Shown here one piece after another: positions 8,541 through 54,207 of a stretch of DNA of 64,000 nt; positions within the stretch are counted from its first letter, which is position 1, and every line of letters begins with the position of its first letter. Made by a program: the position numbers and the translations under genes. The stretch spans positions 696 to 64,695 of the forward strand of contig JAJYEA010000007.1 of assembly GCA_021790425.1 (NCBI GenBank), given 5' to 3'. The stretch comes from Thermoplasmata archaeon (lineage in GTDB: Archaea > Thermoplasmatota > Thermoplasmata > Lutacidiplasmatales > UBA184). The notes under the pieces are model-generated. The model was not told where the DNA came from, did not search any database, and saw nothing but the letters and a program-made list of their open reading frames with translations.

Positions 8541-8613
8541 AGCCGCGGGAGGGATTTGAACCCTCGACCTGCTCCTTACCAAGGAGCCGCTCTGCCTGCT
8601 GAGCCACCGCGGC
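8541..8613 (-). tRNA. tRNA-Thr (anticodon GGU)
   Basis: Manual fold: perfect acceptor GCCGCGG/CCGCGGC, D-arm GCUC-AGCAGGCA-GAGC, anticodon stem GCUCC/GGAGC around loop UUGGUAA, T-arm GAGGG-UUCAAAU-CCCUC, discriminator U. Confidence 0.85.
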
Positions 8614-8621
8614 GCGGACCG

Positions 8622-9683
8622 CTAGGCGCGTGTCCCGTTCCGGTTGCGAGCGGGGAGAAGATAGGGGGCCAGGGCGGCCCTCCAGGTCTCCTCCACCAAC
8701 TTCTGGTAGGTGTTGAAGCTCTCCACCGAGAGCGTGAGCATCTGGTTCAGGAGTTCGGCTCCCTCCGCCGAGTAGCCGGTGGAGAGAACGCCCTGCCCCT
8801 TGTCGCGGACGACGAGCTGGGCCTCGCGGGAGGCCTCATCGAAGGCATCGGTCGAGTTCTTCCAGGGCTGGCCCCTCCGCATCCGGTCCCAGTCCACGCG
8901 GTCGGTGAACTGGGCCGGGCGCTTGTCGAGGAACGCACCCATCCCTTCCTTCTGGTCGTGGCTGGAGAAGAGGATCTGCCAGAGGTCCCGCTCGTACTCG
9001 AGCCCGAGGAGCCGGGTGGCGTCGGAGGCCTGGTTCACCGCGTACTTGGCGGCCGCCATCGCGAGGGCCCCCTTCGAGGCCAGCTGCTGCGCGAGGCCGA
9101 TCGCCTCCTCCAGGAGCTTCTTGGGGGGGACCACGGAGTGGACCAGCCCGTCCGCGTAGGCGTGGGCCGCGCTGAACTTCTGTCCGGTGAAGATCCAGTG
9201 GCGCGCCCGGGCAACCCCGATGGCCCGGGTGAGACGCCGGGAGCCTCCCCATCCCGGGATGACCCCGATGTTGATCTCGGGCTGCGCGAACTGGGCATCC
9301 TCCGCCGCCACGATGAAGTCGCAGGAGAGGGAGAGCTCGCATCCTCCGCCCAGGCAGTAGCCCCGGACGGCGGCAATGACGGGCACGGGGGCCCGTTCGA
9401 TGAGGTTCGTGAGCGCCTGCCCCTTGCTGGAGTAGCGCGCCGCCTCTTCCGGGCCGAGGGAGGCCATCTCCTTCACGTTCGCCCCGGAGGAGAACGCCTT
9501 GTCGCCGGAGCCCGTGATCACGATGGCACGCACCGTCGCGTCCCGCGTCAGCTCCACCACGGCGCCGGCGAGGCCGTCCACCACCGGTGTCGTGAGCACG
9601 TTGAACGGTGGATTGTTGATGGTAACGACTGCGATGTTCCCCACTCGGCGCACGAGCACCGGGTCGGAAGGGGCGGCGGACAT
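8622..9683 (-). CDS. Enoyl-CoA hydratase/isomerase (crotonase family) with a ~95-aa C-terminal extension
   Basis: Crotonase core AVVTINNPP...GSGDKAFSSGANVKE...GYCLGGGCELSLSCDFIVAAEDAQFAQPE...GMGAFLDKRPAQF. The start is taken at MSAAPSD (9683); an A/T-rich element lies ~25 nt upstream. Confidence 0.8.
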   Translation of the reverse strand: MSAAPSDPVLVRRVGNIAVVTINNPPFNVLTTPVVDGLAGAVVELTRDATVRAIVITGSGDKAFSSGANVKEMASLGPEEAARYSSKGQALTNLIERAPVPVIAAVRGYCLGGGCELSLSCDFIVAAEDAQFAQPEINIGVIPGWGGSRRLTRAIGVARARHWIFTGQKFSAAHAYADGLVHSVVPPKKLLEEAIGLAQQLASKGALAMAAAKYAVNQASDATRLLGLEYERDLWQILFSSHDQKEGMGAFLDKRPAQFTDRVDWDRMRRGQPWKNSTDAFDEASREAQLVVRDKGQGVLSTGYSAEGAELLNQMLTLSVESFNTYQKLVEETWRAALAPYLLPARNRNGTRA

Positions 9684-9751
9684 GGAGAGGGCCAATCTGC
9701 GTTGGCTTTTTAGCTTACTGCCGTCCCCGACGGATCCCCGGGCGCGCACCA

Positions 9752-10879
9752 TCACTTCGCCGGGGTCTTCCGGAACCACTCGGCAACCCGGGGCCACAGC
9801 TCCCGGTGCGCCCGGCGGCTGACGGAGAGACCGATGTGCCCCGACTCCTGCTGGAACCGGGCCTTCTCCTGGCTCCGGACGAGATCGAGGATCCGGTTGG
9901 TGCTCTCAGCCGGGATGATATTGTCCTGGGTACCGGTGATCGTCGCGATCGGCATCGTGATCTTCTCGAGCTGGACCCGGCGGCCTCCCAGTTCCCAGGT
10001 TCCCCGGACGAGCCGGTTCTCCTGGTAGCCGTTCCGGACGAACTCGCCGTAGGTGGGTCCCGGCATGGGGATCCCGTCCCGGTTCCAGTACTCCATCCGG
10101 AGGAAGTTCGCCACGAAGTCGGAGTCCTCCACGTGGAGGATCAGCTCGCGATACTTCTGGTAGCTGTTCTTGAACGGATCGAGGTTGTCGAAGGCGAGGT
10201 TGAAGAACTCGGGGGGGACCATCCCGAAGGTCGATCCGATCTTCACCGGGTCGAACCCGGGCGCCTTCGCCCAGACGTTGAGGAAGCTCCCGTCGACGTC
10301 GAAATCGATCCCTGCCGCCAGGAGGGCCAGGCGCGCCACCTTCTCGGGGTGGAGGGCGGTGTACATCGCCATGAAGGAGCCCCCCATGCAATAGCCCAGG
10401 ACCCCGATCTGGTCCTTGCCCGAGGTCTTCCGGACCGCGTTGACGCACCGGTCGACGATCCCGTTGACGTAGTCGTCCACGGTGAGCGAGGCGTCCAGCT
10501 CCGTCGGGGTTCCCCAGTCCACGAGGTAGACGTCGAGACCCCCCCGGAGGAGGGTCTCCACCACGGAGAGGCCGGGCTGGAGGTCCATGATGTAGGGCTT
10601 GTTGATCAGCGCGTAGACGAAGAGGACGGGCGGTCGCGCCTTTCCCTTCCACTCCGGCGGCGCGTCGTAACGGAGGACGGACGTGTGGCCCTCCCGGTAG
10701 ATGACCTCGTGGGGGGTCAGCCCGGCCGGGACCTCGGGCGGATCGAAGGCCATGGCCATCACTCGGCCCAGTCGTTCGTAGAAGTCGTGGAGGGCCTCCA
10801 GCGATGCGGTCCCATCGACGGGGCCCCCGGCCGGCAGGCCGGTCGGGGACGGTGCAGGATCTCTGCGTGCGGCGGGCAC
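9752..10879 (-). CDS. phaC: Class III poly(3-hydroxyalkanoate) synthase catalytic subunit PhaC
   Basis: ~375-aa alpha/beta-hydrolase with the lipase box GYCMGG, Asp/His downstream, and the size and features of class III PhaC. It is adjacent to a phaE-like gene. Confidence 0.8.
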   Translation of the reverse strand: MPAARRDPAPSPTGLPAGGPVDGTASLEALHDFYERLGRVMAMAFDPPEVPAGLTPHEVIYREGHTSVLRYDAPPEWKGKARPPVLFVYALINKPYIMDLQPGLSVVETLLRGGLDVYLVDWGTPTELDASLTVDDYVNGIVDRCVNAVRKTSGKDQIGVLGYCMGGSFMAMYTALHPEKVARLALLAAGIDFDVDGSFLNVWAKAPGFDPVKIGSTFGMVPPEFFNLAFDNLDPFKNSYQKYRELILHVEDSDFVANFLRMEYWNRDGIPMPGPTYGEFVRNGYQENRLVRGTWELGGRRVQLEKITMPIATITGTQDNIIPAESTNRILDLVRSQEKARFQQESGHIGLSVSRRAHRELWPRVAEWFRKTPAK

Positions 10880-10901
10880 AGTGGAGGTAGGGGGAGCTTT
10901 C

Positions 10902-11696
10902 CTACCTAATCTTGTCTTCGAGGCGGCTCACCTTGTTCGCAAGCTCCGCGAGGCTCTGCTGGAGCTGGGCGATCTCCTTCTTGGTGGGGAGCGGGGACAG
11001 GTTGGCGAGGGCCCCTCCCGTCTCCTTCAGCTGGCGCTGGAGGTCGAGGCTCGCATCGAGGGTCTTCCCGAAGAGGGTGACGAAGGGCGGGCTCGTGAAG
11101 TACGAGTAGGTCAGCTTCCGGAAGTTCTCGGCGAAGTCCTTCATCGACTCCTCCTGGGTGCGGACGAAGTCCTCGAACTTGACCTGCGGCGCGAAGGAGG
11201 CCATGGCCTTCTCGTAGAGCTCCTTGGAGAGACCGGACCAGAACTTCTGCGTCATCTCGGCGTACTCCCGGACCTGGTCGGCCGGGTTCTGGGACCCTCC
11301 CGTCTGGGCCTTGCTCCAGTTCTCGAAGAGCTGCTTCTGGAGGTCCTGGCCGGTCGTGAAGGCCGCGGTGACCTTCTGGCCGATCTCCTGGGCGAGCTCG
11401 TTCCAGTCCCGGAACCGCTCCCGGATCTCCTCGACGTCGGGGACCGACTGGCGGGGCTTCATCTGGTCGCGGAGCGACGCGGCCCACTTCTCGTAGTTCT
11501 GCTGCTGCTCGTCACCGAACCGGCGGACGAACTCGCTGGTGGTCGTGCCGACCTCCTTCGCGAAGTTGAGCCAGACCCGGAGCGATTCCTCGGCCGGGTT
11601 GGTGTTCCGGCGGGGGGACGCCGCGGGGGCCTCGGTCGTTTCGGTCGTCGGGGGCGTCTTGCGCACGTTCTGGGTCTTCTTGGTTGCCATCTTCAT
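10902..11696 (-). CDS. phaE: PhaE-like PHA synthase subunit
   Basis: 264 aa starting MKMATKK, with GGAGGA immediately upstream. It is hydrophilic and helix-rich with a C-terminal coiled coil (LSPLPTKKEIAQLQQSLAELANKVSRLEDKI), typical of PhaE. It lies directly upstream of phaC. Confidence 0.55.
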   Translation of the reverse strand: MKMATKKTQNVRKTPPTTETTEAPAASPRRNTNPAEESLRVWLNFAKEVGTTTSEFVRRFGDEQQQNYEKWAASLRDQMKPRQSVPDVEEIRERFRDWNELAQEIGQKVTAAFTTGQDLQKQLFENWSKAQTGGSQNPADQVREYAEMTQKFWSGLSKELYEKAMASFAPQVKFEDFVRTQEESMKDFAENFRKLTYSYFTSPPFVTLFGKTLDASLDLQRQLKETGGALANLSPLPTKKEIAQLQQSLAELANKVSRLEDKIR

Positions 11697-12010
11697 TCCT
11701 CCTTCTGAGTTTGCTTGACAATGTTTCCGACCATGCCGGAGATGGTCTCCGTCCCGGTCGGGACCTTCCACCAGTTGGGAAGGGTCGCTCCGAGTCGCTG
11801 GAAGAGGGCGACCTGCTCCTCTCCCGCGCGGGTCACCTGCCGGAGCCCGAACCAGTAGTATTCGAGAAGGTCCTTCTGGACGTTCTTGGTCCAGTCCAGG
11901 TAGGCCTCCAGTTCCTGCAGGTATAGGTCCGAGGCCTTGGACACGGCCTCGCCGACTTCCTTCCACGCCGCCGTCGTCTGCCCGAGTTGTTCCTGTACTG
12001 TTTCGCTCAT
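11693..12010 (-). CDS. Small phasin-like protein (105 aa) of the PHA operon
   Basis: An ATGA start/stop overlap at both ends (with the phaB stop and the phaE start) implies translational coupling. It is helical, with W/Y-rich amphipathic segments. Its position matches phaP in haloarchaeal phaR-phaP-phaE-phaC clusters. Confidence 0.45.
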   Translation of the reverse strand: MSETVQEQLGQTTAAWKEVGEAVSKASDLYLQELEAYLDWTKNVQKDLLEYYWFGLRQVTRAGEEQVALFQRLGATLPNWWKVPTGTETISGMVGNIVKQTQKEE

Positions 12011-12753
12011 AGATACATGCCCCCATTCAGATTGAGGACTGCGCCCGTGATGTAGTCGGCATCGGGGGAGAGGAGGTAGACCACGCTCCGCGCCACCTCC
12101 CGCGATGTGCCGAACCTTCCCATCGGGATCTGGGCCAGGATCTTGTCCCGCACCTTGTCGGGGATCTTCTGGACCATCGGAGTGTCGATGAAGCCGGGGG
12201 CCACGACGTTCACGGTGGTGCCCTTGGGGGCGAGTTCCCTCGCCAGGGCCTTGGCGAACCCGATGATGCCGCTCTTGCTGGCGGCATAGTTCACCTGGCC
12301 GAAGTTCCCCATCTGGCCGACCACGCTCGAGATGGTCACGACCCGGCCGTGACCGCTCGCCACGATCTCTTCCACGAAGGCCCGGGTGGTGTAGTAGACC
12401 CCGGAAAGGTTGACCTTGATGACGTCGTCCCACTGGGCATCCGTCATCTTCGTGAAGAGGCTGTCGCGATTGATCCCCGCCGCGTTGACCAGGCAGTCGA
12501 TGCGGCCGAACTTGTCGTGGACCTCCTCGGTCATCCCATTCATCCCCTCGGGACTGTCCAGCTCGCCGTGAACGGCCACACACTTGCGGCCCATCCCGCG
12601 GACCTCGGCGACCACCCGGTCGGCCTCGTCCTTGTGGGTGTGGTACTGAATGGCGACGTCGGCGCCCTCGGCGGCCAAGGCACGCACGATCTCGACCCCG
12701 ATCCCCCCGCTTCCCCCCGTCACCAGGGCCCTGCGGCCGGCGAGAAGGGTCAT
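12007..12753 (-). CDS. phaB: Short-chain dehydrogenase/reductase; acetoacetyl-CoA reductase (PhaB)/FabG-like
   Basis: The motifs TGGSGGIG, NAAG and a YAASK catalytic tetrad; 248 aa; PHA operon context. Confidence 0.8.
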   Translation of the reverse strand: MTLLAGRRALVTGGSGGIGVEIVRALAAEGADVAIQYHTHKDEADRVVAEVRGMGRKCVAVHGELDSPEGMNGMTEEVHDKFGRIDCLVNAAGINRDSLFTKMTDAQWDDVIKVNLSGVYYTTRAFVEEIVASGHGRVVTISSVVGQMGNFGQVNYAASKSGIIGFAKALARELAPKGTTVNVVAPGFIDTPMVQKIPDKVRDKILAQIPMGRFGTSREVARSVVYLLSPDADYITGAVLNLNGGMYL

Positions 12754-13058
12754 CGGCGGTCCCCTGACTTGGACCCCGCCTTGGGGTTCCGTTCGCCTTC
12801 CCGGGGCGTCTCGGGCTGGGCGATGAAGAGCTTCTGCAGGGCGAGGTAGCCCTCCAGCGAGCGCTTGACCTGCTCCTGGACGGCATCCTCGAGGTCCTTG
12901 AGATAGTCCTCAGGAGAGGCGAAGCCCTTACCGGGTTCTCCCGGTAGGATCACGAGGACCTCCTTGCCTGCCAACTCACGAAGGCCGCTGACCTGGCCGT
13001 TGGGGCTGACACGCCGTGTGCCGATGATCTTGCCCCCTGCTCCGAGTTCGATCCGCAT
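12750..13058 (-). CDS. AbrB/SpoVT-family (swapped-hairpin) DNA-binding protein, PhaR-like regulator candidate
   Basis: The N-terminal MRIELGAGGKIIGTRRVSPNGQVSGLRELAGKEVLVIL resembles the AbrB/MazE looped-hinge helix fold. It is the first gene of the operon and overlaps the phaB start by 4 nt. A TATA-like gtatataatg lies ~40 nt upstream. Confidence 0.6.
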   Translation of the reverse strand: MRIELGAGGKIIGTRRVSPNGQVSGLRELAGKEVLVILPGEPGKGFASPEDYLKDLEDAVQEQVKRSLEGYLALQKLFIAQPETPREGERNPKAGSKSGDRR

Positions 13059-13096
13059 AGGTCAGTGTATGGCGCACAGCATCCCACATCAGCGCA

Positions 13097-13106
13097 GTAT
13101 ATAATG
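13097..13106 (-). promoter_or_regulatory. TATA-box-like element upstream of the PHA operon (AbrB-like gene start 13058)
   Basis: gtatataatg (palindromic TATATA) ~40 nt upstream of the first operon gene on the minus strand. Confidence 0.4.
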
Positions 13107-13270
13107 TCTGGCTGCGGAGGGTGTCCAAACGAGGCCCTCGATCGATGAACTTGGGTAGAGGCGGGGTTGAGGTCCAACGGGGTGCGCGTTCCTCGGCGGG
13201 AGCGCAGATCGAAGCAGCGTCTTTCCCTGTATGGGTGAGTGTGAATTTGATAGTGTCTAATCGGTGTGCG

Positions 13271-13280
13271 ACTTATATAC
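13271..13280 (+). promoter_or_regulatory. TATA box for pilin-like paralog A
   Basis: acttatatac centred ~23 nt before the ATG at 13298, suggesting a leaderless mRNA. Confidence 0.45.
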
Positions 13281-13297
13281 CCCTGTCATCATATAAC

Positions 13298-14041
13298 ATG
13301 CCGATGTCAGCTAGGGGGATTTTTGGTCGAAAGACGAAGCGCGGGGGAACACGCTGGGTCAGCCTCTTGCTTGGGGTGGGGATCGTCTTGGTGACGGGCA
13401 CGGTCCTGGCCGACGTGGTACTGACGTATACCTTGAACAACAGCGTGGGAAGTTCGAACACCAGCCCGTTCGAGTGGGAGGAGGGGACGAACTATGCCGC
13501 GGCGAGCTCGCTCTCGATTGTCTCTAACACTTGCAACCCAAGCAACATGGGTGCCACAAATCCTACGAACTGCTTTGCTCTTTCGATGACCGTTAATGGC
13601 GTTTCTTACGTTCCGACAACGGTTGCTGATGCTGTCCACTTCCAGTGGCTGGCCACCAGCGCCACGGTAGCGACGAGCGTGGGCACCGGGGTCCTGTCTG
13701 TCGTTACCACCGCTAACACACTTCCGGCTGGCTCGTGTGCCTGGGCTTTCATATCCAACGGCGCGCTGACGGCAACCAGTTTCACGTACACCGCCGGCAC
13801 TCCGTGCTCCGTGAGCGCGGCCGCACCAGCTTCGGTCTATACGGCTTGTGGCGCGTCGACGGCAGCAACGGCTTCCGTTAATCTGCTGACGGGTGCCGTG
13901 AACGGTGCAGTCACTTGCTCTATCGCCAAGGCGACCGCCGCCGGCTCCGCCTTGGACATTAGCTACTTCGTCTACGTTCCCGGCGGTGCGGTTGCTCCCC
14001 AGGGTGTCGCAAGCCTGTACCTTTCCCCTGTCCTTAGTTGA
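13298..14041 (+). CDS. Secreted/anchored Thr-Ser-Ala-rich protein, paralog A of a tandem pilin-like trio
   Basis: N-terminal basic stretch (GRKTKRGGTR), hydrophobic helix, then ADVVLTYTLNNSVGSSNTSPFEWEEGTNYAAAS. A TATA-like acttatatac lies ~23 nt upstream, consistent with a leaderless transcript. Confidence 0.6.
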   Translation: MPMSARGIFGRKTKRGGTRWVSLLLGVGIVLVTGTVLADVVLTYTLNNSVGSSNTSPFEWEEGTNYAAASSLSIVSNTCNPSNMGATNPTNCFALSMTVNGVSYVPTTVADAVHFQWLATSATVATSVGTGVLSVVTTANTLPAGSCAWAFISNGALTATSFTYTAGTPCSVSAAAPASVYTACGASTAATASVNLLTGAVNGAVTCSIAKATAAGSALDISYFVYVPGGAVAPQGVASLYLSPVLS

Positions 14042-14045
14042 GGGG

Positions 14046-14855
14046 ATGGTCGTGAAGACATCTGAGAAGGGAAAGCTGGAGCAGGGGGTCCGACGGGGGA
14101 GGGAGCGGCGCAGGCGGCGCTTCCTCTGGGGCGCCCTGCTGCCACTCCTGGTGGGGGGGGCGATGATCGGGTCAATTGCTGTCGCCGATGTGATTCTGTC
14201 CTATCAGGCCACTTCGTCAGTGGGGGCGAACGTCAACACGAACTACTACTGGCAGGACGGAACAAACTATGCGGTGGCTCACGCCGACAACTTCGTGACC
14301 ATCGCCTGTTCGGGGGCTACTCTTGCGACGCCCACCACGTGCGGCGGAACGGCCACTCCAGCGGGGCAGTCGACGGAGACGATCACCCTGAACGGGGTTC
14401 AGTCCGCGGCGGTCTACGATGTGCAGCTGACGGAATTCGCGGTGGTCGCGGGCTTCCCCGCGGCTGGCCAGACGTTCAACCTCGGGGCCGTGCTGGCGAC
14501 CACGACGATCACGGGACCCACGTGCGTATACGTCTTCATCACGACGGTGGCCCCCAGCGCACCCGCCTCGCTCTCCACTGCGGTGCCCTCGAACCAGCCC
14601 GTGGGGTGCGGGCTCTTCGAGCCCACGGTCGCGAGCGGGGATGAGGAGGACATAAACCTCATGACCGGGGCGATCAGCAATCCCGCGACCGGACAGGCCG
14701 GAGTGACGTACATCGGAGCCGGCGGCGACTTCTACCTGAACCAGGTCCCGTTCGGCGCCGCCACTCCGCTCCTCTACATCTCGATGGCGGTCGTGTCGTC
14801 CGCTACGGCTCCGGCCGGCTCCGCGACGTTCTTCGCGAACCCTGTGGTGACGTAG
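14046..14855 (+). CDS. Paralog B of the tandem pilin-like trio
   Basis: Starts 4 nt after the paralog A stop. It has RRRRRFLWGALLPLLVGGAMIGSIAVADVILSYQATSSVGANVNTNYYWQDGTNYAVAH, and the conserved WxxGTNYA block is shared with A. Confidence 0.6.
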   Translation: MVVKTSEKGKLEQGVRRGRERRRRRFLWGALLPLLVGGAMIGSIAVADVILSYQATSSVGANVNTNYYWQDGTNYAVAHADNFVTIACSGATLATPTTCGGTATPAGQSTETITLNGVQSAAVYDVQLTEFAVVAGFPAAGQTFNLGAVLATTTITGPTCVYVFITTVAPSAPASLSTAVPSNQPVGCGLFEPTVASGDEEDINLMTGAISNPATGQAGVTYIGAGGDFYLNQVPFGAATPLLYISMAVVSSATAPAGSATFFANPVVT

Positions 14856-14872
14856 AAGAGAAGGGTCGGTCG

Positions 14873-15550
14873 ATGAAGGGGGGGAAGGGTCGCCGCCGCG
14901 TCAGCCAGGCGGCCCTTCTCGTCGGCTTTTTCTTGGTTTTTGTCTTGGTCTCGGGTGACGTCGGTCTTGCCGGCGCTGACATGATCTCTTCTTATTCGGA
15001 TCATCCGGGAGCGGCGAACCACGCGGCACCCGCGCCGCTGACCGTGAACAACAACAATGTGCGGGTCCGGTGCCGAGCCCTGTTGGTGACCGTGAGGATC
15101 ACGAGCACGGTCAACGCCGCAGGCACCCAGGGGGTCATCACGATCAACATTCCCGCTCGATGCGCGGGAGTGGCGTTGGCGGCATTCCACAATCCTGGCC
15201 TGCTCTTCCGAAGCGTGAACAACATGGCCACGGGGATGTCCCTCACGTCCAACCCCCCATGGACCGCGCCCGGGACGGGTCAACTGACGCTCTGCGTGGC
15301 TCGTCAGAACAGTCCGTGCCTGACCACCACCATGGTCCTGATGAGCGGGAGCAGCTCGGGGCCGACCTCGGTGGTGGCGGTTGCGAACGCCCGCAACTTC
15401 GGTCCCTCGGTGCAGGTGACTCAGGGGATGGGGGCGGGGACCTCGGCCACGGTCGGACTCGACCTCTATCAGGATTTCCGCAACACGGCGACGGGGGACT
15501 ATGCGGTGATCCAGGTCGATCACGTCACCCTGGTGGTCAATCAAGCTTAA
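14873..15550 (+). CDS. Paralog C (more divergent) of the tandem pilin-like trio
   Basis: KGRRRVSQAALLVGFFLVFVLVSGDVGLAGADMISSYSD, with a TM helix after the basic N-terminus and an ADMISSY motif; Thr/Ser/Ala/Gly-rich. Confidence 0.55.
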   Translation: MKGGKGRRRVSQAALLVGFFLVFVLVSGDVGLAGADMISSYSDHPGAANHAAPAPLTVNNNNVRVRCRALLVTVRITSTVNAAGTQGVITINIPARCAGVALAAFHNPGLLFRSVNNMATGMSLTSNPPWTAPGTGQLTLCVARQNSPCLTTTMVLMSGSSSGPTSVVAVANARNFGPSVQVTQGMGAGTSATVGLDLYQDFRNTATGDYAVIQVDHVTLVVNQA

Positions 15551-37700: not shown

Positions 37701-38391
37701 CAACGCCCTCGAGGCGCTGGGTTCCGTCAACACCCTCGCCATCGACCAGTACGACTCCGAGAAGAAGCGCCTGGACGAGTTCCAGGGCGAGGTCACCCGG
37801 CTGAAGGAGGAGCGCGAAGGGCTCCTCGCGCTCGTGAAGGAGCTCGAGGAGAAGAAGCGGTCCCGGCTCGGCGAGGTCATCGGCGGCATCGACGAGAACT
37901 ACCGGAAGATCTACACGGAGCTCTCCGGCGGCGGGGAAGGCGAGCTCGTCATGGAGAACCCGAACGACCCGCTGGCGGGGGGCCTCCTCCTCCGCGCGCG
38001 TCCCCTCGGGAAGAAGGCGGACCGACTGGAGCAGCTCTCGGGCGGGGAGAAGTCCCTCGCCTCGCTGGCCTTCATCTTCGCCCTCCAGCGCTACGACCCC
38101 TCCCCGCTCTACGTGCTCGACGAGGTCGACATGAGCCTCGACGGGGTCAACGCGGAGAACATCGGCCGCATGTTCCGGCGCAACTCCGCGAAGGCCCAGT
38201 TCATCGTGATCTCGCTCCGGAAGGTAACGCTCAAATGGTCGGAGCACCTGTTCGGCGTGACGATGCGGGGGGACGGCCGTTCACAGGTGGTGGGCCTCCG
38301 CCTCGATGACATCAAGGACATCGACGAGCGGGAGCTGTCGGAGATGGCTTCCCAGCCGAACAACGTCGCCAAGGCGGACGGAGGGAGCTAG
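34762..38391 (+). CDS. smc: Chromosome segregation protein SMC (apparent non-AUG start)
   Basis: Conserved N-terminus (T)YLKKIRLHNFKSFAGTTEIPFNPGFTGVAGPNGMGKSNISDSILFVLG. The frame is open back to a TAA at ~34690 with no ATG/GTG/TTG in frame; the first canonical start (34864) would delete Walker A. Long coiled coils, a hinge, and the C-terminal LSGGEKSLASLAFIFAL plus DEVD are present. Confidence 0.9.
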   Translation, partial: TYLKKIRLHNFKSFAGTTEIPFNPGFTGVAGPNGMGKSNISDSILFVLGPPSSKALRADRLTRLFFNGGKQGKPATECEVSLIFDNSDRAMAVDSDEVELTRYVKVAPGDPDGYYSYFYVNGRRSTQTEMDSLLARARLSAEGYNVIQQGEVNRIIVMSPLERRGLAERLAGIAQYDEDLSKAADKRTAVETNMSQLGTILGEVERNLAQLDGQRTQAIRYRDLSTAKHQLEVAMARTNINKLRSEVASAEKQQTQLTAELEKLGSKLAELRSRKTATEAQIRELEGQIAQRAGAEALKVQEEKDRRKLEVGRQEMALTNTQAAFNEATESKAQVEHELATRRKDLKALEERTRRLEVEVATIEKQVAEHQRSLTSAHESKELSQKAVELKRSQLVNERDQAAKGDAWQKAVQKAETAKAELASLEQNKALLEEELGTRQAEVKDAEFRIKNTSSSRKGGESSIQSLTDEMHSLKAKEKNLSAASERLKIETLELNRSYAGLEAKLKERGGGGGGPGMAADFLLSQHNLGRLPGIRGKVEDLVTVDPELTTAISVAGGSRLQALVVDNDEVAAQCIDLLNKEKRGRVTLLPLNKMVPGRPRGKALVVQHSPGCRGFALDLVKFDKSFEDALWFVFGETLIMDNLDAARKQMGGVRLVTLRGELLEATGAITGGFLGGSSASRMAENAATLKHLAEQLGSRTAEEGRVNSELQTVTQRLKVVTEELARHSGEVTGAQSAMDQLQKDLTSARERLRETEERSRKATARYTELSQEFEGLSRQAESVQKELSALKAAHEEIQKQFIDFLPASLGARMKKLQEEGQQLNETHVAKVRDLESARSTLTASTETLRSREAELERLKTLVATKDTEVKKIAKALAEEREKLATVEKVVESQNQVSRTLTVKKDGLQIELNKVTADEASTATKLQTQEGLAKDFQIRLDTQRAALQEAESAVHDLPELPKELQGKSLEELRKAMVEATNALEALGSVNTLAIDQYDSEKKRLDEFQGEVTRLKEEREGLLALVKELEEKKRSRLGEVIGGIDENYRKIYTELSGGGEGELVMENPNDPLAGGLLLRARPLGKKADRLEQLSGGEKSLASLAFIFALQRYDPSPLYVLDEVDMSLDGVNAENIGRMFRRNSAKAQFIVISLRKVTLKWSEHLFGVTMRGDGRSQVVGLRLDDIKDIDERELSEMASQPNNVAKADGGS

Positions 38392-39380
38392 TGACGCTAC
38401 CCGCCCAGGAGGCCAAGGAACTCGCGCTCACCGCCTCGCCGGTCTCGCGCGAAGCGGCCGAGCACGTGCTCGACTACCTCCTCTGGAACAAGGCCATGAT
38501 CGGGGAGAACATGGCCGTCACCGAGCGGCTCGAGAAGTACCTCGACATGGTCCGGAACCTGAAGGAGGGGGTCCACGTCGTGATCCAGGATCCCTACGAG
38601 CGGGCGACGGCGCTCCTCTTCGAGCTCGTGCTCTCCGAGGAGTTCAACCCGTGGGCGATCGACCTGGTCCGCTTCACCCAGCTCTATCTCGACCGCATCA
38701 AGGTCACCGGGATGGACTTCCCGATCGCGGGACGCCTCATCTACATGGCCTGGAACATCCTCTTCCTGCAGTCCCAGGTGGTCCTCTCCTCCCGCAAGGA
38801 CCCGGACCCGCTCCCCCAGGACCCGGGGGCCGTCCCGCTCGAGGACGGGTATCTCGGGGAGATGTCCTCCCCGGAGGAGCTGGACGTCACGAACACGATC
38901 CTCACCTCCCCGGAGCCCCCCTTCTCGGCGATGGTGCGCCACGCCGAGACCCGGCCCGTCAGCCTGATGGAGCTCGCTCGGGCGTTCACCGAGGCCGAGA
39001 CCGAGGCCCGCCTGGCCCTCGAGGCCGAGGAGGCGCGCCAGAAGATGCGGAAGGAGCAGGCGCTCGTCCGCGACGTGCTGGTCCACGGGGAGGAAGTGCC
39101 CCTGAGCGACCTCACCGCGGTGTGGGACATCGCGCTCAAGCACCCGATCGGGGAGCGCTTCACCTTCGAGGAGGCCCTGGAGGGCATCAGCAGCCGGGAG
39201 CGCGTGGTGTCGCTCTTCCTCTCCATGCTCTTTCTCGTCCAGCGCGGCGGCATCACCCTTCACCAGGACATGATCGGCCGAGGGGCCATCTTCCTGGTCC
39301 GGACGCAGGATACGATGGACTCCACCGGGATGCTCGTGAAGAGCGACGTCCCCCCGCCGGTGGCCACGCCCAACAACTGA
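38391..39380 (+). CDS. scpA: Segregation and condensation protein A (kleisin)
   Basis: The GTG overlaps the smc stop (TAGTG). ScpA-like N-terminus LDYLLWNKAMIGENMAVTE...FNPWAIDLVRFTQLYL; 329 aa. Confidence 0.85.
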   Translation: MTLPAQEAKELALTASPVSREAAEHVLDYLLWNKAMIGENMAVTERLEKYLDMVRNLKEGVHVVIQDPYERATALLFELVLSEEFNPWAIDLVRFTQLYLDRIKVTGMDFPIAGRLIYMAWNILFLQSQVVLSSRKDPDPLPQDPGAVPLEDGYLGEMSSPEELDVTNTILTSPEPPFSAMVRHAETRPVSLMELARAFTEAETEARLALEAEEARQKMRKEQALVRDVLVHGEEVPLSDLTAVWDIALKHPIGERFTFEEALEGISSRERVVSLFLSMLFLVQRGGITLHQDMIGRGAIFLVRTQDTMDSTGMLVKSDVPPPVATPNN

Positions 39381-40069: not shown

Positions 40070-43000
40070 TTACGCGCTCTTCTCGGCGGCCTTGGAACCG
40101 ACGGCGTTCCGGAGTTCCTGGACGGCCTCGTTCGCCGCCGACAGGGCTCCCTCGTAGTTCCCGTCCGCCTTGAGCTGGATCGACCGGTCCAGGAGCTCGG
40201 AGGGGTGGGCCGTGGGCAGGTGCGCCTCTTGCGCCTGTCCGATAAGCGTGTCGATGAGGTAGTGGAGGTCCGCCAGCTCCTTCTGCCAGCCCTTCCTTCG
40301 GGTGAGCTCCACCCCGAGGTCGATGAGCTCGCGGGTGGCCCCGAGGAGCTTGCCCTGGGCCTGCTGCTCCTGGGCCGACTTGATGCGCTCCGGGAGCCCC
40401 TGGATCGCCACGTTGAACCCGTCGCGGGCCTTCTGGACGCTCTTCTCCATCTCCTGGAGCTTCGCGGTGAGCGGCGCGGCGAGGAGGTGCTCCAGCTTCG
40501 TCCGCGTCGCGATGATCCGCTGGACTGCCGCGTCGGGAGTGTCCTGGCGCAGGAGGGTCCGGGCCTCGGTGACCCCTTCGGCGATGGGACTCCCGTCGAC
40601 CCCGATCTTCTCCGCCAGCCGGGCCCCCTTTTCGAGCTTCTCCATCTCGCCGTTGACGTAGGCGAGGAGCACCTCGTTGATGCGGGTGTGGAGTCCCCGG
40701 GTCGACTCGGTGGCCTCCGCGAAGCCCCGACGGGACAGTTCCCCCCGGACCGCCGTGGCCTTCTCGTCGACCGAGGCGACGTCCGCATCGGACAGCCGCC
40801 CCTTGACGGGTTCCAGACGCTCGGCCTCCTCCGCGAGGATCGCCTCGATACGGGTGACCGCGGTCTTCTGGGTCTCCTCCGAGATCCGTACCGCCGCGGA
40901 CCAGTCCTCGAGCGCTCGGGCCTGGCGGGCCTCCTGGGTGGCCTTCGTGAAGGCGACCGCCGGGCTCTCGTCCCCCGCGAAGTAGTCGATCACGGGCCGG
41001 AGGGAGTCCAGACGGGCGCTGAGCGACTGGTCGAAGAGCGTGCGGGCGCGTTCGTAGGCGCCCCGGACGGTGCTGTCCGCCTCGAGGTAGCTTCCCTTGC
41101 TGGCGAGCGCATCCGCGGAGTGCAGCGCGGTCTCGATATCGGCCCGGTCCACCGAGAGCCGGTCGAGCGCGCCGAGGATCGGTTCCATCCGCTGCCTCGT
41201 CTCCTGGAACCGGTTGCGTTGCAGGGTGGCCTGCTGGATCAGGTCGTTCGTCCGCATCACCAGCTCGAGGAGCTGGGAGTACTCCCCGCTCTCGAAGGAC
41301 TTGCGGGCGGTGGCGAGGTCCGTGGCCGCCTGGGGGACGATGAGGCCCGCCTTGTCGGCGTCTTCCACGTGCGCCGAGATGGTCTGGAGCGAGTTCTGCG
41401 CGATGGAGTATTGGAGTTCCACCTTCTCGAGCTCGTTCTCGGCCTGGGTCACGAGCTGCAGGACCTCCATGGGGGTGGTCGACCCCACGAGTCCCCGGGC
41501 CTTCGCGAGGTAGTTCTCGGCCACCATGGTGAGGGCTCCCTCCCGCTTCGCGCGGGTGATCAGCCCCTGGAGGTTGGACAGGACCTGGTTCAGGTGCGCG
41601 CGCACCAGCGTTCCCGCCTGGTCCTTGACGCCCTGGGCACCCTCGAGCACCCCGCCGTAGTCCATGGCCCGGTGGCGGTCCTCCAGCTGAGCCAGCCGGG
41701 GAAGGATCGCCTTCACGTCGAGGCGCATCAGGTCGGCCTGGTTCACGATCTCGCGGGACTCCGCGAGCGCGCGATTGGCGGTCTCCTGGAAGGCCTTGCT
41801 CTGGAAGAACTGCTTCCGGACCTGCCCGATGGCCCGGCCCACGCCCGTGGGGAACTTCTCGGACATCTTGGTCCGGACGTCGGAGAGGAGCGCATCGGCC
41901 TCCCGGGTCTCGAGGCCCTGCTCCCGGGCGACCCGGAGCTCCCCATCGAGGGTCGCGAGCTGCTCGTCGAGGACCGGGCGGAGCTTCGCCAGGATCTCGA
42001 CCCCCAGCTCCTCCAATTGCTTCTGCGGACCCTGGGGGTCGCCGGCCTGGGAGTCCTTGAGGCAGGCCTCCGCGCGCTCGAGCCAGGCGGTCTCGGGCAG
42101 CCCCAGGGCCCCCGTCCCGTCGACCACCGCCTTCAGCGTCTCGTTGAGGGTGCGGGAGTCCATGCGCAGCGAGAGCTGGTTCCCCAGCTGACGGATCTCC
42201 ACGATCGTGGCCTCGGCGGTGTCGAACGCGAGCGACTGGTAGGCGGTCCGGACGTCGGCGATCTTCGAGGTGAGGAGGCGGAGCTCCTCCGGAGTGGCAC
42301 CGCGCTTCCGGAGCGCGGTCATCTGGTTCACGATCTGGCTGATCCGGTCCACGATGCTCTGGGCCGTGGACTGGATGGAGTGGGCCGTGTTGGTGGCGCG
42401 CTGGGCGGTCTCCAGCGCCTCGAGAGGGTTCCCCGACTGGAGGGACGTGCGGGCGGCCTCGAGCAGGTCCTTTACGGTCGCGGGTTCGGGCACGGTCTTC
42501 GAGACCTCGACCAGAGCGAGCTTGGCCTCGGAGAGCGCCTCCTCCGCCCGCGTGGCCGCGAGCTGGGACATCGCGGCGAGGATCTCCTGGCCCGACTTCG
42601 CGGCGCGGGGGTAGTCCCCGAGGTCGAAGATCTCCCGGACCCGGGTGATCTCCCGGGACCGGTCCTCGAGGGGTATCCCCATCTTTCCGAGGCGCGTGAG
42701 GGCATCATCCAGGTCGGCGACGACCCGGCCCACCTCGGTGGCCATGGTGATGTTGATCTCGCGTTCGGCCTCTGTGAGCTTCTGGAGGAACCCGAGCGTG
42801 TCCGGGCCCGCAAAGGCCCGTACCTGGGCGAGAGTGGCCTGGGCCTGGTTGCGCGTGGTCTCGTCCGCGATGAGGGATGCGGTCTGGTCGAGCTCATCGA
42901 GCCGGGCTTGGATCGAGGGAGCCACCGCCTCCTTGAGCTGGATCGAGAGCTGGGAGAGAACCTCCGCGGCCTCGGCTACCCGTGCGGAGGAGAGGAGAAG

Positions 43001-44491
43001 GTTCGCTTCCTCGATGTGGGCGCTCATCTCGTCCGGGTACGTCCAGTGGCGCTCGGAGAGCGCCGTGAGGGTGCGTTCGACCCGGTCCAGCTGTTCCCCG
43101 AGGAACTGGCTGCTCTCGCGTCCGACGGCCCGGATGCCCTCGCGCAGGCTGGCCCGCGCGACGGTGAAGTCGCGCTTGACGAGCGCGGCCTCGGCCTCCT
43201 GGATGTACTGCTGGAAGCGCGAGGCGTCGAGGCCTCCGGAGCCGAGCCGGCCGATCAGGGCCTTGAACTCCTCGAGCTCGGTGTGGGCGATCTCCATGTC
43301 CTCCACGGAGGACCGGGCACTATCGAGGACGTCCGAGGAGACCTTGAGCGCGCGGGTGTAGTCCTTGTCGCGGATCGCGTCCCGGACCCCGCGGATCTTC
43401 TCCACGGTCTGGTCGACGTTGCGGCCGAGGTCCCGCGCCTCCTCCATGTAGGTGCGCACCTCCTCCAGGCGTTCGAAGACGACCCGGAGCACGGGAGGCT
43501 CGATGAGCCCCTGGGCCCGGGCGAGCAGGGGGAATCCTTCGGGGAGCGGGACCCGGTCCACCTCGACCACGAGGGCCTCCAATTCGTGCGGCACCTCTCC
43601 GGCGTCCGCGCCGGAGTTCGTGGCGGTGGTGAGCGCGTCCTTGAGCTCTTGAAGGCGAGCACGGAGGCTGCTCCGTCCCTGCTCCTCCAGCTGGGTGCGA
43701 GCCGCAGCGAGCTTGGCCCCCACCTTGTCGGCGGAGATCAGCGAGGAGGACCGGCTCCGTTCCGCCAGCTTCTGCGCCTCGGTGACGTCGACCCCGAGGT
43801 TCTTCGCCACCGGGATCGCGGCCTCGAGGTCGGAGAACTCCTTGCGGAGCTTCTCCACCACCTGGGGGGCGGAGGACTTCAGGTTCTCCTCAAAGCAGCC
43901 TGCGGCACCCTTGAGGTCCCGCTTCTCAACGAACTCGAGACAGGGAGAGAGCGCCTTCCGGACGCCCTCCTCCATCTCGGAGGGAACCGCCCACTTCAGG
44001 AGGGCATCGACCTGGTCACCGAGCCAGACCAGCCCGGACTCCTCGGTCTTCTGGAGGTCCGGCTCGAGGGCCCTGATCTCCTCCAGCGCCTCGGCGGGCT
44101 TGTTCTCGGAGACGAAGCGGTTGAGCGCCTCCACCCGGGTGCGCTGCTCGTCCGTGGGCTCGAGTCCCATCGTCGGGAGTCCCTCGAGACGGAGCTGGAG
44201 CGCCTTGGAGCGTTCCTCGAGCTTGGACTGCAGTAGGGTCCGCGCCTCCTGTTCCAGGGCGGTGGTGAGCTTCTCGGCCTCGTCCCACGCCGGACGGCGG
44301 GTGGCCCGTGTGATCGCCTCTTCCTTGTCCGGGAAGGCGAAGGCGCCGTTGTCGAGGGAACGGCCAAGTCCGAGGATGGACTCGAGCTTCGATCGGGCGG
44401 TCTCGTAGGCGGCCTTCTGCGTCCGGAGCTCTTCGGCCTTTTGGGCCAGGCTCTTTTGCCGAAAACCGTCCAACCTCCCACCCGGTATCAC
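40070..44491 (-). CDS. Giant (1473-aa) all-alpha-helical coiled-coil/spectrin-like protein of unknown function
   Basis: GTG start with GAGGG ~7 nt upstream. The composition is balanced (A/L/E/R/Q/T/K/S) and no TM or P-loop was found. Long heptad-compatible segments run throughout. The opposite-strand ORF (39935..44236) is L/G/R/P-rich antisense noise and overlaps scpB. Confidence 0.75.
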   Translation of the reverse strand: MIPGGRLDGFRQKSLAQKAEELRTQKAAYETARSKLESILGLGRSLDNGAFAFPDKEEAITRATRRPAWDEAEKLTTALEQEARTLLQSKLEERSKALQLRLEGLPTMGLEPTDEQRTRVEALNRFVSENKPAEALEEIRALEPDLQKTEESGLVWLGDQVDALLKWAVPSEMEEGVRKALSPCLEFVEKRDLKGAAGCFEENLKSSAPQVVEKLRKEFSDLEAAIPVAKNLGVDVTEAQKLAERSRSSSLISADKVGAKLAAARTQLEEQGRSSLRARLQELKDALTTATNSGADAGEVPHELEALVVEVDRVPLPEGFPLLARAQGLIEPPVLRVVFERLEEVRTYMEEARDLGRNVDQTVEKIRGVRDAIRDKDYTRALKVSSDVLDSARSSVEDMEIAHTELEEFKALIGRLGSGGLDASRFQQYIQEAEAALVKRDFTVARASLREGIRAVGRESSQFLGEQLDRVERTLTALSERHWTYPDEMSAHIEEANLLLSSARVAEAAEVLSQLSIQLKEAVAPSIQARLDELDQTASLIADETTRNQAQATLAQVRAFAGPDTLGFLQKLTEAEREINITMATEVGRVVADLDDALTRLGKMGIPLEDRSREITRVREIFDLGDYPRAAKSGQEILAAMSQLAATRAEEALSEAKLALVEVSKTVPEPATVKDLLEAARTSLQSGNPLEALETAQRATNTAHSIQSTAQSIVDRISQIVNQMTALRKRGATPEELRLLTSKIADVRTAYQSLAFDTAEATIVEIRQLGNQLSLRMDSRTLNETLKAVVDGTGALGLPETAWLERAEACLKDSQAGDPQGPQKQLEELGVEILAKLRPVLDEQLATLDGELRVAREQGLETREADALLSDVRTKMSEKFPTGVGRAIGQVRKQFFQSKAFQETANRALAESREIVNQADLMRLDVKAILPRLAQLEDRHRAMDYGGVLEGAQGVKDQAGTLVRAHLNQVLSNLQGLITRAKREGALTMVAENYLAKARGLVGSTTPMEVLQLVTQAENELEKVELQYSIAQNSLQTISAHVEDADKAGLIVPQAATDLATARKSFESGEYSQLLELVMRTNDLIQQATLQRNRFQETRQRMEPILGALDRLSVDRADIETALHSADALASKGSYLEADSTVRGAYERARTLFDQSLSARLDSLRPVIDYFAGDESPAVAFTKATQEARQARALEDWSAAVRISEETQKTAVTRIEAILAEEAERLEPVKGRLSDADVASVDEKATAVRGELSRRGFAEATESTRGLHTRINEVLLAYVNGEMEKLEKGARLAEKIGVDGSPIAEGVTEARTLLRQDTPDAAVQRIIATRTKLEHLLAAPLTAKLQEMEKSVQKARDGFNVAIQGLPERIKSAQEQQAQGKLLGATRELIDLGVELTRRKGWQKELADLHYLIDTLIGQAQEAHLPTAHPSELLDRSIQLKADGNYEGALSAANEAVQELRNAVGSKAAEKSA

Positions 44492-45099: not shown

Positions 45100-45109
45100 G
45101 TTTATATAG
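45100..45109 (+). promoter_or_regulatory. TATA box for the RHH regulator gene
   Basis: gtttatatag ~30 nt upstream of the ATG at 45135. Confidence 0.45.
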
Positions 45110-51604: not shown

Positions 51605-51612
51605 TTTATATA
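51605..51612 (+). promoter_or_regulatory. TATA box of the thermosome gene
   Basis: tttatata ~40 nt before the ATG, with a GAGG SD-like element between. Confidence 0.45.
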
Positions 51613-53400: not shown

Positions 53401-54207
53401 TCAGGGGATGGCCAAAGGCCGTTCCTTCGTGATGAACTCGAGGACGGCGGCGTTGAACTCCTCGGGGCGCTCGACGTTGACGATGTGCCCCGTGTCGGGA
53501 AGGAGCTTCACCTCGGCCCCCGGGATCGCCTGGCGCATCCGGCGGGCATAGGCCGGGTCCACGACCCGGTCGTTCAGACCGTGGATGGCGAGGGTGGGTA
53601 TCCGGATCTTCGGGAGCTCGCTGCGCACGTCGAACCCGAGGTTCCCGACGCCGGACGGGGCGATCCCGGCGAAGTTCCGGTGCTTCTGGGTCTCCAGGAA
53701 GTGGTCGACCTCCTTCTCGTGCTCCAGGAAGAAATCGAGCGTGAAGATGTCCTTCGTGACCCGGGACAGGTAGGCCTCCACCCCTTCCTTGCGGAAGATC
53801 TCCGCCCAGCGCTCGGCCACCGCGCGGGTGTCCGCATCGACCATCGGGGCGGTCGCCGCGAGGACGATGCCGCGGAGCCGGTCCGGGTGGTGCACCGCCA
53901 AGGCGAGGGTCACGAACCCTCCCGCGCTCAGTCCGACGACCCAGGTCTTGGCGATGCCCAGGGCATCGAGCAGGGCGACCACGTCGCGCGCATGGTCGAA
54001 CGGAGTGTACGTGGGCGTCTGGGGCATGTCGGAGCGGCCGTGTCCCCGTAGGTCGGGGGCGATCACGCGGAACTGCCGGGAGAAGGGTTCCATCTGGCCC
54101 TCCCACTCGTAGCAGTTGCCCCCCAGTCCGTGCAAGAAGACGATGGGGTCGCCGGTCCCCACGTCGAGGTAGTGCATCTTGAAGCCGTTGATGCGGGCTT
54201 CGGCCAT
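53401..54207 (-). CDS. Alpha/beta-fold hydrolase
   Basis: HGLGG, the nucleophile elbow GLSAGG and a C-terminal His; 268 aa. Confidence 0.85.
   Translation of the reverse strand: MAEARINGFKMHYLDVGTGDPIVFLHGLGGNCYEWEGQMEPFSRQFRVIAPDLRGHGRSDMPQTPTYTPFDHARDVVALLDALGIAKTWVVGLSAGGFVTLALAVHHPDRLRGIVLAATAPMVDADTRAVAERWAEIFRKEGVEAYLSRVTKDIFTLDFFLEHEKEVDHFLETQKHRNFAGIAPSGVGNLGFDVRSELPKIRIPTLAIHGLNDRVVDPAYARRMRQAIPGAEVKLLPDTGHIVNVERPEEFNAAVLEFITKERPLAIP

Follow-up and report, generated by a model that had tools for sequence, protein, structure and literature searches.

The stretch examined here is a 64-kb window of contig JAJYEA010000007.1 from a Thermoplasmata archaeon, with a GC content of ~67%. Positions 8622-13058 of its minus strand are filled by six co-oriented, tightly coupled open reading frames (ORFs), all of which had been named in an initial annotation of the sequence. 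They encode PhaE-like and PhaC-like subunits of a predicted polyhydroxyalkanoate (PHA) synthase, a short-chain dehydrogenase/reductase (SDR), a crotonase-family enoyl-CoA hydratase (ECH) and two small proteins of 102 and 105 residues (Table 1), and together they read as a probable PHA synthesis operon. The six-gene arrangement is far beyond chance, and the same order recurs in 17 Thermoplasmata metagenome-assembled genome (MAG) loci and in further contigs.

The PhaC protein matches the class III synthase model TIGR01836 from end to end (positions 11-349 of 350, E 1.2e-100). Its lipase-like box, GYCMGG, occupies residues 162-167 and places the nucleophile at C164. The residues C164, D319 and H348 do not vary among 33 aligned PhaCs, and the triad region also aligns with the solved class I PhaC structures 5hz2 and 9knj, with C164 falling on the catalytic cysteine. 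An RMExW motif common to haloarchaeal and bacterial class III enzymes is present, at a site where class IV enzymes carry LLQKW or LVQKW. Measured against the conserved class III motif R-M-E-x-W-I-x-D-x-x-D (PMC7137286), the window sequence RMEYWNRDGIP matches five of the seven specified positions. The protein is 44-47% identical to haloarchaeal PhaC and has a length of 375 aa, compared with 359-411 aa in Thermoplasmata orthologs and 422-519 aa in haloarchaea. Full activity of haloarchaeal class III PhaC requires a C-terminal extension (PMC7137286); a long tail of this type is not present in the window PhaC. The haloarchaeal residues quoted as C143 and C190 follow the Haloarcula numbering and have no mapping onto the Haloferax sequence. 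Weak matches to PHB_depo_C and other hydrolase models are also obtained. The alignments identify PhaC as a synthase of class III type whose Cys-Asp-His triad is intact, thereby bearing out the class assignment and the GYCMGG box proposed initially.

In all loci, the gene immediately upstream of phaC encodes the PhaE-like protein. Its last 62 residues, and these only, match PF09712 (5.8e-7; 29.5 bits against a gathering score of 25.7), and BLASTP aligns it with Haloferax PhaE at 4e-6. A 17-sequence profile of the family aligns in hhalign with haloarchaeal PhaE over 152 columns, interrupted by a ~57-aa insertion, with a probability of 90% and E 1.5e-6. The likeness to PhaE seen in the initial annotation is upheld, and these profile comparisons establish the partner as a homolog of haloarchaeal PhaE. 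The nearest relatives of the PhaE-PhaC pair are of the haloarchaeal PhaEC subtype.

Table 1 Genes and sequence elements of the pha locus (window coordinates)
Feature	Position	Strand	Remarks
First gene, uncharacterised small protein	12750-13058	-	102 aa
SDR 3-ketoacyl reductase (FabG/PhaB type)	12007-12753	-	248 aa
Uncharacterised small acidic protein	11693-12010	-	105 aa
PhaE-like non-catalytic synthase subunit	10902-11696	-	264 aa; 262 aa from second ATG
PhaC, class III-type catalytic subunit	9752-10879	-	375 aa, GTG start
Crotonase-family enoyl-CoA hydratase (ECH)	8622-9752	-	376 aa
Crotonase C-terminal extension, aa 286-376	8625-8897	-	core = aa 30-285
TATA box ATTATATA	13098-13105	-	40-47 nt upstream of first start codon
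Operator-like element	13063-13088	-	TGTG 13088-13085, TGTG 13078-13075, N7, CACTG 13067-13063

The six genes are joined by five junctions. ATGA overlaps are found at 12750-53, 12007-10 and 11693-96, the last of which holds only with the first ATG of PhaE as the start and is preceded by a GGAGGA motif. A gap of 22 nt separates PhaE from the GTG start of PhaC, and PhaC and ECH overlap as GTGA (4 nt) or TGATG (1 nt). The translational coupling described in the initial annotation is retained; its count of four junctions with two ATGA overlaps is replaced by five with three. Public gene callers return the same ORFs except for PhaC, which they shorten to 333 aa. The longer GTG start is supported by sequence comparison, as orthologs align from residue 8-10 and the class III model from residue 29. 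Hidden Markov models of Pfam and NCBIfam match the SDR, PhaC, PhaE (C-terminal part only) and the crotonase, in agreement with the initial assignments; none matches the 102-aa or the 105-aa protein, for which AbrB and phasin matches had been expected.

The cluster is conserved well beyond this genome. PhaC occurs at 52-60% identity in at least 17 species-level Thermoplasmata genomes, and the closest pha clusters all lie in Thermoplasmata MAGs. The order common to the 17 MAG loci is the first gene, the SDR (missing from 5 of the 17), the small gene, PhaE, PhaC and ECH. A Thermoplasmatota genome of 33% GC (GCA_027324445.1, locus L095 6001-9335) keeps the first gene, SDR, small gene, PhaE and PhaC, without the crotonase; in this genome, divergence puts both the small gene and PhaE beyond Pfam, and the small gene also beyond BLAST. 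Gene order is kept across genomes of 33-69% GC. One related pha cluster adjoins fibrillarin and YjgF genes, as in the window. Flanking genes otherwise vary between genomes, and the pha cluster therefore behaves as a self-contained module. In the locus of one MAG (L074 6001-8137), PhaC aligns in two frames and ECH in three, the frameshifts representing pseudogenes or assembly errors.

A neighbour-joining tree of PhaC (360 columns, 100 bootstraps), which contains no Nitrososphaera, Methanoperedens or Archaeoglobi sequences, recovers the Thermoplasmata PhaCs as monophyletic (100) and as sister to the haloarchaeal PhaCs (98), apart from the class III and class IV enzymes of the bacteria sampled. 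The phylogeny proposed with the initial annotation, against haloarchaeal and bacterial enzymes, therefore places the window PhaC beside haloarchaea. Archaeal housekeeping genes in the window include those for EF-1alpha, thermosome, fibrillarin, an archaeal D-aminoacyl-tRNA deacylase, SMC-ScpB, an H+-pyrophosphatase and citrate synthase. The median isoelectric point of 30 window proteins is 6.9, compared with 4.1-4.5 for Haloferax pha proteins. This excludes a salt-in halophile as the host, and the lack of acidic bias remarked on initially is confirmed.

The SDR matches Pfam adh_short_C2 at 1.7e-60, falls just short of the TIGR01830 FabG model (4e-88, 295 bits; cutoff 297.75) and further short of TIGR01829 AcAcCoA_reduct (6e-82, 274.9 bits; cutoff 302.1), and passes only the FabG subfamily model NF009466 (257 against a cutoff of 222). 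It shares 44% identity with the SDR beside the Haloferax pha cluster. It is presumed to be an acetoacetyl-CoA reductase giving (R)-3-hydroxybutyryl-CoA.

The crotonase consists of a canonical core and a C-terminal extension. The core matches PF00378 ECH_1 at 4e-68, its top PDB match is EchA8 (1e-59), and both catalytic glutamate motifs, GGGCEL and QPEI, are present and aligned with those of EchA8. All solved crotonase homologs stop at query residue ~285, and residues 286-376 are therefore an add-on. This extension of ~90 aa is conserved in orthologs, where it carries a DW..FPWE motif and a helix, and shows no similarity to PhaE, PhaP, PhaR or the 102-aa and 105-aa proteins. Sequence comparison marks the extension as lineage-specific, and (S)-specificity of the enzyme is to be expected from its family. 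A search for a thiolase or MaoC/PhaJ, covering the window and the 6-kb flanks of 17 related loci, found none; the crotonase does stand in place of MaoC, as first described.

The protein encoded by the first gene contains an ultra-conserved 40-aa N-terminal β-rich domain (GKIIGTRRVSPNGQVSGL..EVLVILPG), a long helix at residues 49-79 and a basic disordered tail; its AlphaFold2 (AF2) model has a mean confidence (pLDDT) of 75. Family-wide, the 40-residue N-terminus is near-invariant, G-K-I-x-G-T-x-x-V-S-P-N-G-Q-V-S-G ... L-V-I-L-P-G, and is followed by the helix and a variable basic tail. Most of the 127 homologs are ~153 aa long; all 127 lack both Pfam domains and informative names, and the taxon labels given for them are all Thermoplasmata, Thermoplasmatota or Euryarchaeota. 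The gene opens the cluster in 15 of the 17 MAG loci. Its N-terminus is ~80% identical to its counterpart in the 33% GC genome, whose PhaC shares just 40% identity with that of the window.

In the initial annotation, this protein was taken for an AbrB/SpoVT-like regulator. No NCBIfam model matches it, the AbrB/MazE Pfam models (PF04014, PF14250) match none of 36 + 3 family members at E <= 10, the family profile retrieves no AbrB-type chain from the PDB, and the AF2 model has no Foldseek match. Against haloarchaeal PhaR, BLASTP gives no alignment, and hhalign of the two families returns a probability of 0.2-0.3% with 4- and 27-sequence PhaR profiles. The positive controls worked: genuine PhaR matches PF04014 at E 0.01-0.03, and a PhaR profile finds 2glw in the PDB at 2e-7, plus SpoVT. 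The conserved domain is N-terminal in the 102-aa protein, whereas the AbrB domain of PhaR is C-terminal. With sequence, profile and structure tests all negative, the AbrB identity is rejected, and the homology to haloarchaeal PhaR considered alongside it fails in the same comparisons. Conservation and position make the protein a candidate regulator or granule-associated protein. Two distant family members with the invariant N-terminal 40 aa (L096 3010-3402 and L097 5378-5719) lie outside pha clusters, one adjoining an M20/M28 peptidase and the other a small CDC48_N-like protein and gyrase. The N-terminal domain is therefore not exclusive to PHA.

The 105-aa protein, in the phasin position, is acidic and consists of one long amphipathic helix (residues 2-76) and a conserved C-terminal motif, VPKGTETISGMV. 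The AF2 model reaches a pLDDT of 80, with values above 90 over residues 10-70, and the hydrophobic moment is 0.65, compared with 0.42+/-0.07 in shuffles (about 3 standard deviations). The gene adjoins phaE in 16 of the 17 MAG loci. An exhaustive phmmer search of 1.84 billion cluster representatives yields nine matches to the protein, about seven of them short relatives and two probably spurious. No Pfam or NCBIfam model, phasin models included, matches it. The comparison with haloarchaeal PhaP gives E 0.059 over 57 aa in BLASTP and a probability of 0.4% in hhalign, and Foldseek returned nothing for the model because a single helix is uninformative. The homology to haloarchaeal PhaP implied by the earlier label "phasin-like" is rejected on the BLASTP, hhalign and phmmer results, and the modelled helix leaves the protein as a phasin candidate only. 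Judged from sequence searches, the 102-aa and 105-aa proteins are narrow, lineage-specific Thermoplasmata families. As neither has detectable PhaR or PhaP homology, the resemblance to phaR-phaP-phaE-phaC is positional only: the gene order does mirror the haloarchaeal arrangement, as had been suggested, and the homology of the two small proteins does not follow.

Upstream of the first gene, a TATA box coincides with the end coordinate originally given to the operon, 13106. The heptamer TTATATA is observed 4 times in the window (0.05 expected), at 13098-13104 (-), 13273-13279 (+), 45102-45108 (+) and 51606-51612 (+). The first copy precedes the pha operon and the last the thermosome gene, each ~40 nt upstream of the gene start, and the motif looks like the local strong-promoter TATA consensus. 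When 16 independent Thermoplasmat(ot)a pha loci of 33-69% GC are aligned on the first-gene start codon, the TATA box is kept at -42..-36 across these promoters. Between it and the start lies an operator-like element with the consensus TGTG(-30)..TTGCTGTG(-24..-17)-N5-7-CACAG(-11..-7), i.e. TGTG-N6-TGTG-N5-7-CACAG. Its information content is 0.97 bit/column, compared with 0.22-0.27 in the flanks. The exact form TGTG-N5-7-CACA occurs at -20 in 9/17 loci; its background frequency is 0.33% of windows, and shuffling the bases yields a mean of 0.03 loci. TGTG-N6-TGTG occurs once in the window; a 1081-aa ORF contains a second TGTG-N5-CACA site, at 2098-2110, which was judged to be chance. The element was found neither in haloarchaeal phaRP promoters nor upstream of 102-aa family members outside pha clusters. 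Its position, after the TATA box, ahead of the start codon and across the expected transcription start, is one commonly occupied by archaeal repressors. From this promoter alignment, the operon is apparently under conserved transcriptional control.

The system most similar to the window cluster is the haloarchaeal maoC-phaR-phaP-phaE-phaC arrangement (Haloferax mediterranei pHM300; PMC7137286). Both have a two-subunit PhaE-PhaC, with PhaC 44% identical, two small genes before phaE-phaC, a FabG-type SDR nearby and an attached hydratase gene. The differences are substantial. PhaC measures 422-519 aa in haloarchaea and 375 aa in the window, and PhaE 182 and 264 aa; the proteins are acidic in haloarchaea and non-acidic in the window, where alone the SDR lies within the operon. 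The haloarchaeal hydratase is a MaoC (R)-hydratase, in contrast to a crotonase of an (S)-specific family with a novel C-terminal extension. PhaR and PhaP have no detectable homology to the two small proteins, and the promoter elements differ. Haloferax PhaJ serves mobilisation, not synthesis (PMC7137286).

Bacterial class III PhaEC is the Allochromatium vinosum type. Its plasmid-borne representatives from Sinorhizobium and Bosea share with the window a PhaC of ~40 kDa, the G-x-C-x-G-G box, the triad, RMExW and an adjacent PhaE. They differ in that PhaC identity is 34-36%, the likeness of PhaE is confined to a C-terminal motif (hhalign 7%) and the accessory genes are others. The Bacillus class IV phaR-phaB-phaC operon likewise contains an SDR and a PhaC of similar length with a GYCMGG box; it differs in a PhaC identity of 35%, the lack of RMExW and a partner, PhaR, that shares only a 55-column C-terminal motif. 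Among other archaea, phaEC gene sets are reported in Nitrososphaera-type ammonia oxidisers (PMC7554672) and Ca. Methanoperedens (PMC8561730), and phaEC with phaRP-like clusters in Archaeoglobaceae (bioRxiv 10.1101/2025.05.06.652502). These are, as here, genome-inferred class III-type PhaC/PhaE of non-halophilic archaea, and differ in not being Thermoplasmata. A 2025 screen of thermophile genomes found no PhaC in the Thermoplasmata examined, and archaeal PhaC only in Halobacteria and Archaeoglobaceae (bioRxiv 10.1101/2025.05.06.652502). Experimental work on archaeal PHA storage has centred on haloarchaea. Searches of open-access full texts brought up no account of PHA synthesis genes from Thermoplasmata or Thermoplasmatota, which does not by itself prove novelty.

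Three other explanations of the cluster were weighed. In the first, the two small genes would be truly homologous to haloarchaeal PhaR (AbrB-type) and PhaP but strongly diverged, making the cluster orthologous to phaR-phaP-phaE-phaC. Phasins and small regulators diverge fast, the order small, small, PhaE, PhaC matches, albeit with the SDR inserted between the small genes, the window PhaC is sister to haloarchaeal PhaC in the tree, and by eye only, RRVSPNGQVSG loosely recalls the AbrB loop R-V-x-x-x-G-R/Q-V/I-S/T-I-P. Yet comparison of both pairs gives no more than 0.2-0.4% probability in hhalign (profiles of 17-36 against 4-27 sequences), AbrB/MazE Pfam models match 0/39 family members where true PhaRs do match, and the PDB search that recovers 2glw and SpoVT with the PhaR profile recovers neither with the 102-aa family profile. 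With the conserved domain at the opposite end and different promoter motifs, such orthology is improbable.

Catalytic residues and partner proteins bear on the other two. An SDR and a crotonase are classic β-oxidation partners, and PhaC has weak hydrolase-model matches (PHB_depo_C) and a score below the class III cutoff, as would suit a fatty-acid or lipid-ester operon in which the PhaC-like hydrolase is an esterase, acyltransferase or depolymerase. The nucleophile in G-Y-C-M-G-G is, however, a cysteine where hydrolases use serine; the full triad and RMExW accompany an end-to-end class III model match of 1e-100, a PhaE homolog stands directly upstream in every locus, and the cluster holds no acyl-CoA dehydrogenase, thiolase or (S)-3-hydroxyacyl-CoA dehydrogenase. 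On the cysteine nucleophile, the triad and the PhaE partner, a generic β-oxidation operon is rejected as very unlikely, in keeping with the initial preference for a PHA operon. Least likely of all is a Bacillus-type class IV PhaC-PhaR synthase acquired from Firmicutes. Bacillus PhaCs at 34-36% identity dominate the non-archaeal matches of the genome scan, and the partner matches TIGR02132 phaR_Bmeg at 5e-4 and, over 55 columns, a Bacillus PhaR profile with 79% probability. Haloarchaeal PhaCs are nevertheless more similar (44-47% identity), the tree groups the window clade with haloarchaea at 98% bootstrap, RMExW replaces the class IV LLQKW/LVQKW, and the partner's alignment with haloarchaeal PhaE extends over 152 columns, its likeness to class IV PhaR only over the shared C-terminal motif. 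Identity, tree and RMExW motif lead to rejection of the class IV assignment.

The explanation preferred here is a single-promoter, translationally coupled operon for PHA synthesis in an uncultured, non-halophilic, high-GC Thermoplasmata archaeon, to which we assign a probability of about 0.82 on the sequence evidence. Several observations weigh against it. No polymer has been observed, and the reading draws on sequences of uncultured organisms. The PhaC score with TIGR01836, 337.0 bits, is below the curated class III cutoff of 365.3, and the PhaE-like protein scores 26.8 with TIGR01834, far below the cutoff of 154.95. Neither the window nor the 6-kb flanking regions of related loci encode a thiolase, PhaJ or recognised depolymerase, so that substrate supply and mobilisation are unaccounted for locally. 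The crotonase product is the (S)-enantiomer, which PhaC cannot use directly. Distant 102-aa family members sit outside pha clusters and there lack the operator motif, and the roles given to the small proteins and the ECH extension draw only on position, conservation and predicted helicity.

In the proposed PHA synthesis operon, the SDR would reduce acetoacetyl-CoA to (R)-3-hydroxybutyryl-CoA, which PhaEC would polymerise. The 105-aa amphipathic helix protein may serve as a phasin-like granule coat. The crotonase would interconvert crotonyl-CoA and (S)-3-hydroxybutyryl-CoA; because it makes or consumes the (S)-form, it could not feed PhaC directly. It may instead connect the acetoacetyl-CoA pool with the breakdown of butyrate, fatty acids or amino acids, or help to drain this pool during PHA mobilisation. 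The conservation of its extension suggests a docking role, by which the enzyme might be held at the granule or the synthase. At the promoter, the 102-aa protein, or a factor encoded elsewhere, may bind TGTG-N6-TGTG-N5-7-CACAG. Such binding would repress the operon, since the element overlaps the expected transcription start, in a manner analogous to, not homologous with, haloarchaeal PhaR. As the operator does not accompany the 102-aa family outside pha clusters, the pairing of protein and operator is a putative one.

The enzymes are ordinary representatives of known families; what sets this cluster apart is its lineage, its accessory proteins, the extension of the crotonase and the conserved operator. 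A bolder and distinctly tentative proposal is that soil and peat Thermoplasmatota own a version of the PHA granule whose regulatory and granule layer was invented independently of bacteria and haloarchaea. It would comprise, jointly, a new small DNA-binding repressor family acting on the TGTG-N6-TGTG-N5-7-CACAG operator, a new single-helix phasin family, and a crotonase tethered by its C-terminal module, the granule being a site of channelled (S)/(R)-3-hydroxybutyryl-CoA metabolism.

If the PHA operon reading is true, a widespread soil archaeal group, the mesophilic, non-halophilic Thermoplasmata, joins the likely PHA producers. With both PhaC and PhaE below the NCBIfam cutoffs, annotation by those models would probably miss both as PHA synthase subunits, which may be a reason why the system went unremarked. 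A non-acidic PhaEC near the haloarchaeal subtype should express more easily in ordinary hosts. The crotonase extension and the two small proteins, of 102 and 105 aa, are likewise given a clear functional context by the cluster.

On either side of the operon, further features are found. A tRNA-Thr(GGU) gene at 8541-8613 (-) starts 8 nt past the crotonase stop on the same strand, and may be transcribed by read-through from the pha operon or from its own promoter within the 3' end of ECH. Divergent from the operon, at 13121-15550 (+), lie three consecutive, apparently paralogous ORFs; in each, a hydrophobic segment and Ser/Thr/Ala-rich sequence come after a basic N-terminus. The first, the only one of the three scanned, has no Pfam match; the proteins may be pilin-like or surface proteins. 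A 268-aa α/β hydrolase (Abhydrolase_1, 6e-42) is encoded at 53401-54207 (-), ~40 kb from the pha operon. Two other ORFs, of 1473 aa at 40070-44491 (-) and of 329 aa at 38391-39380 (+), have a coding-like GC content at third codon positions and no Pfam match; the 329-aa ORF lies between SMC and ScpB, where a kleisin (ScpA) is expected.

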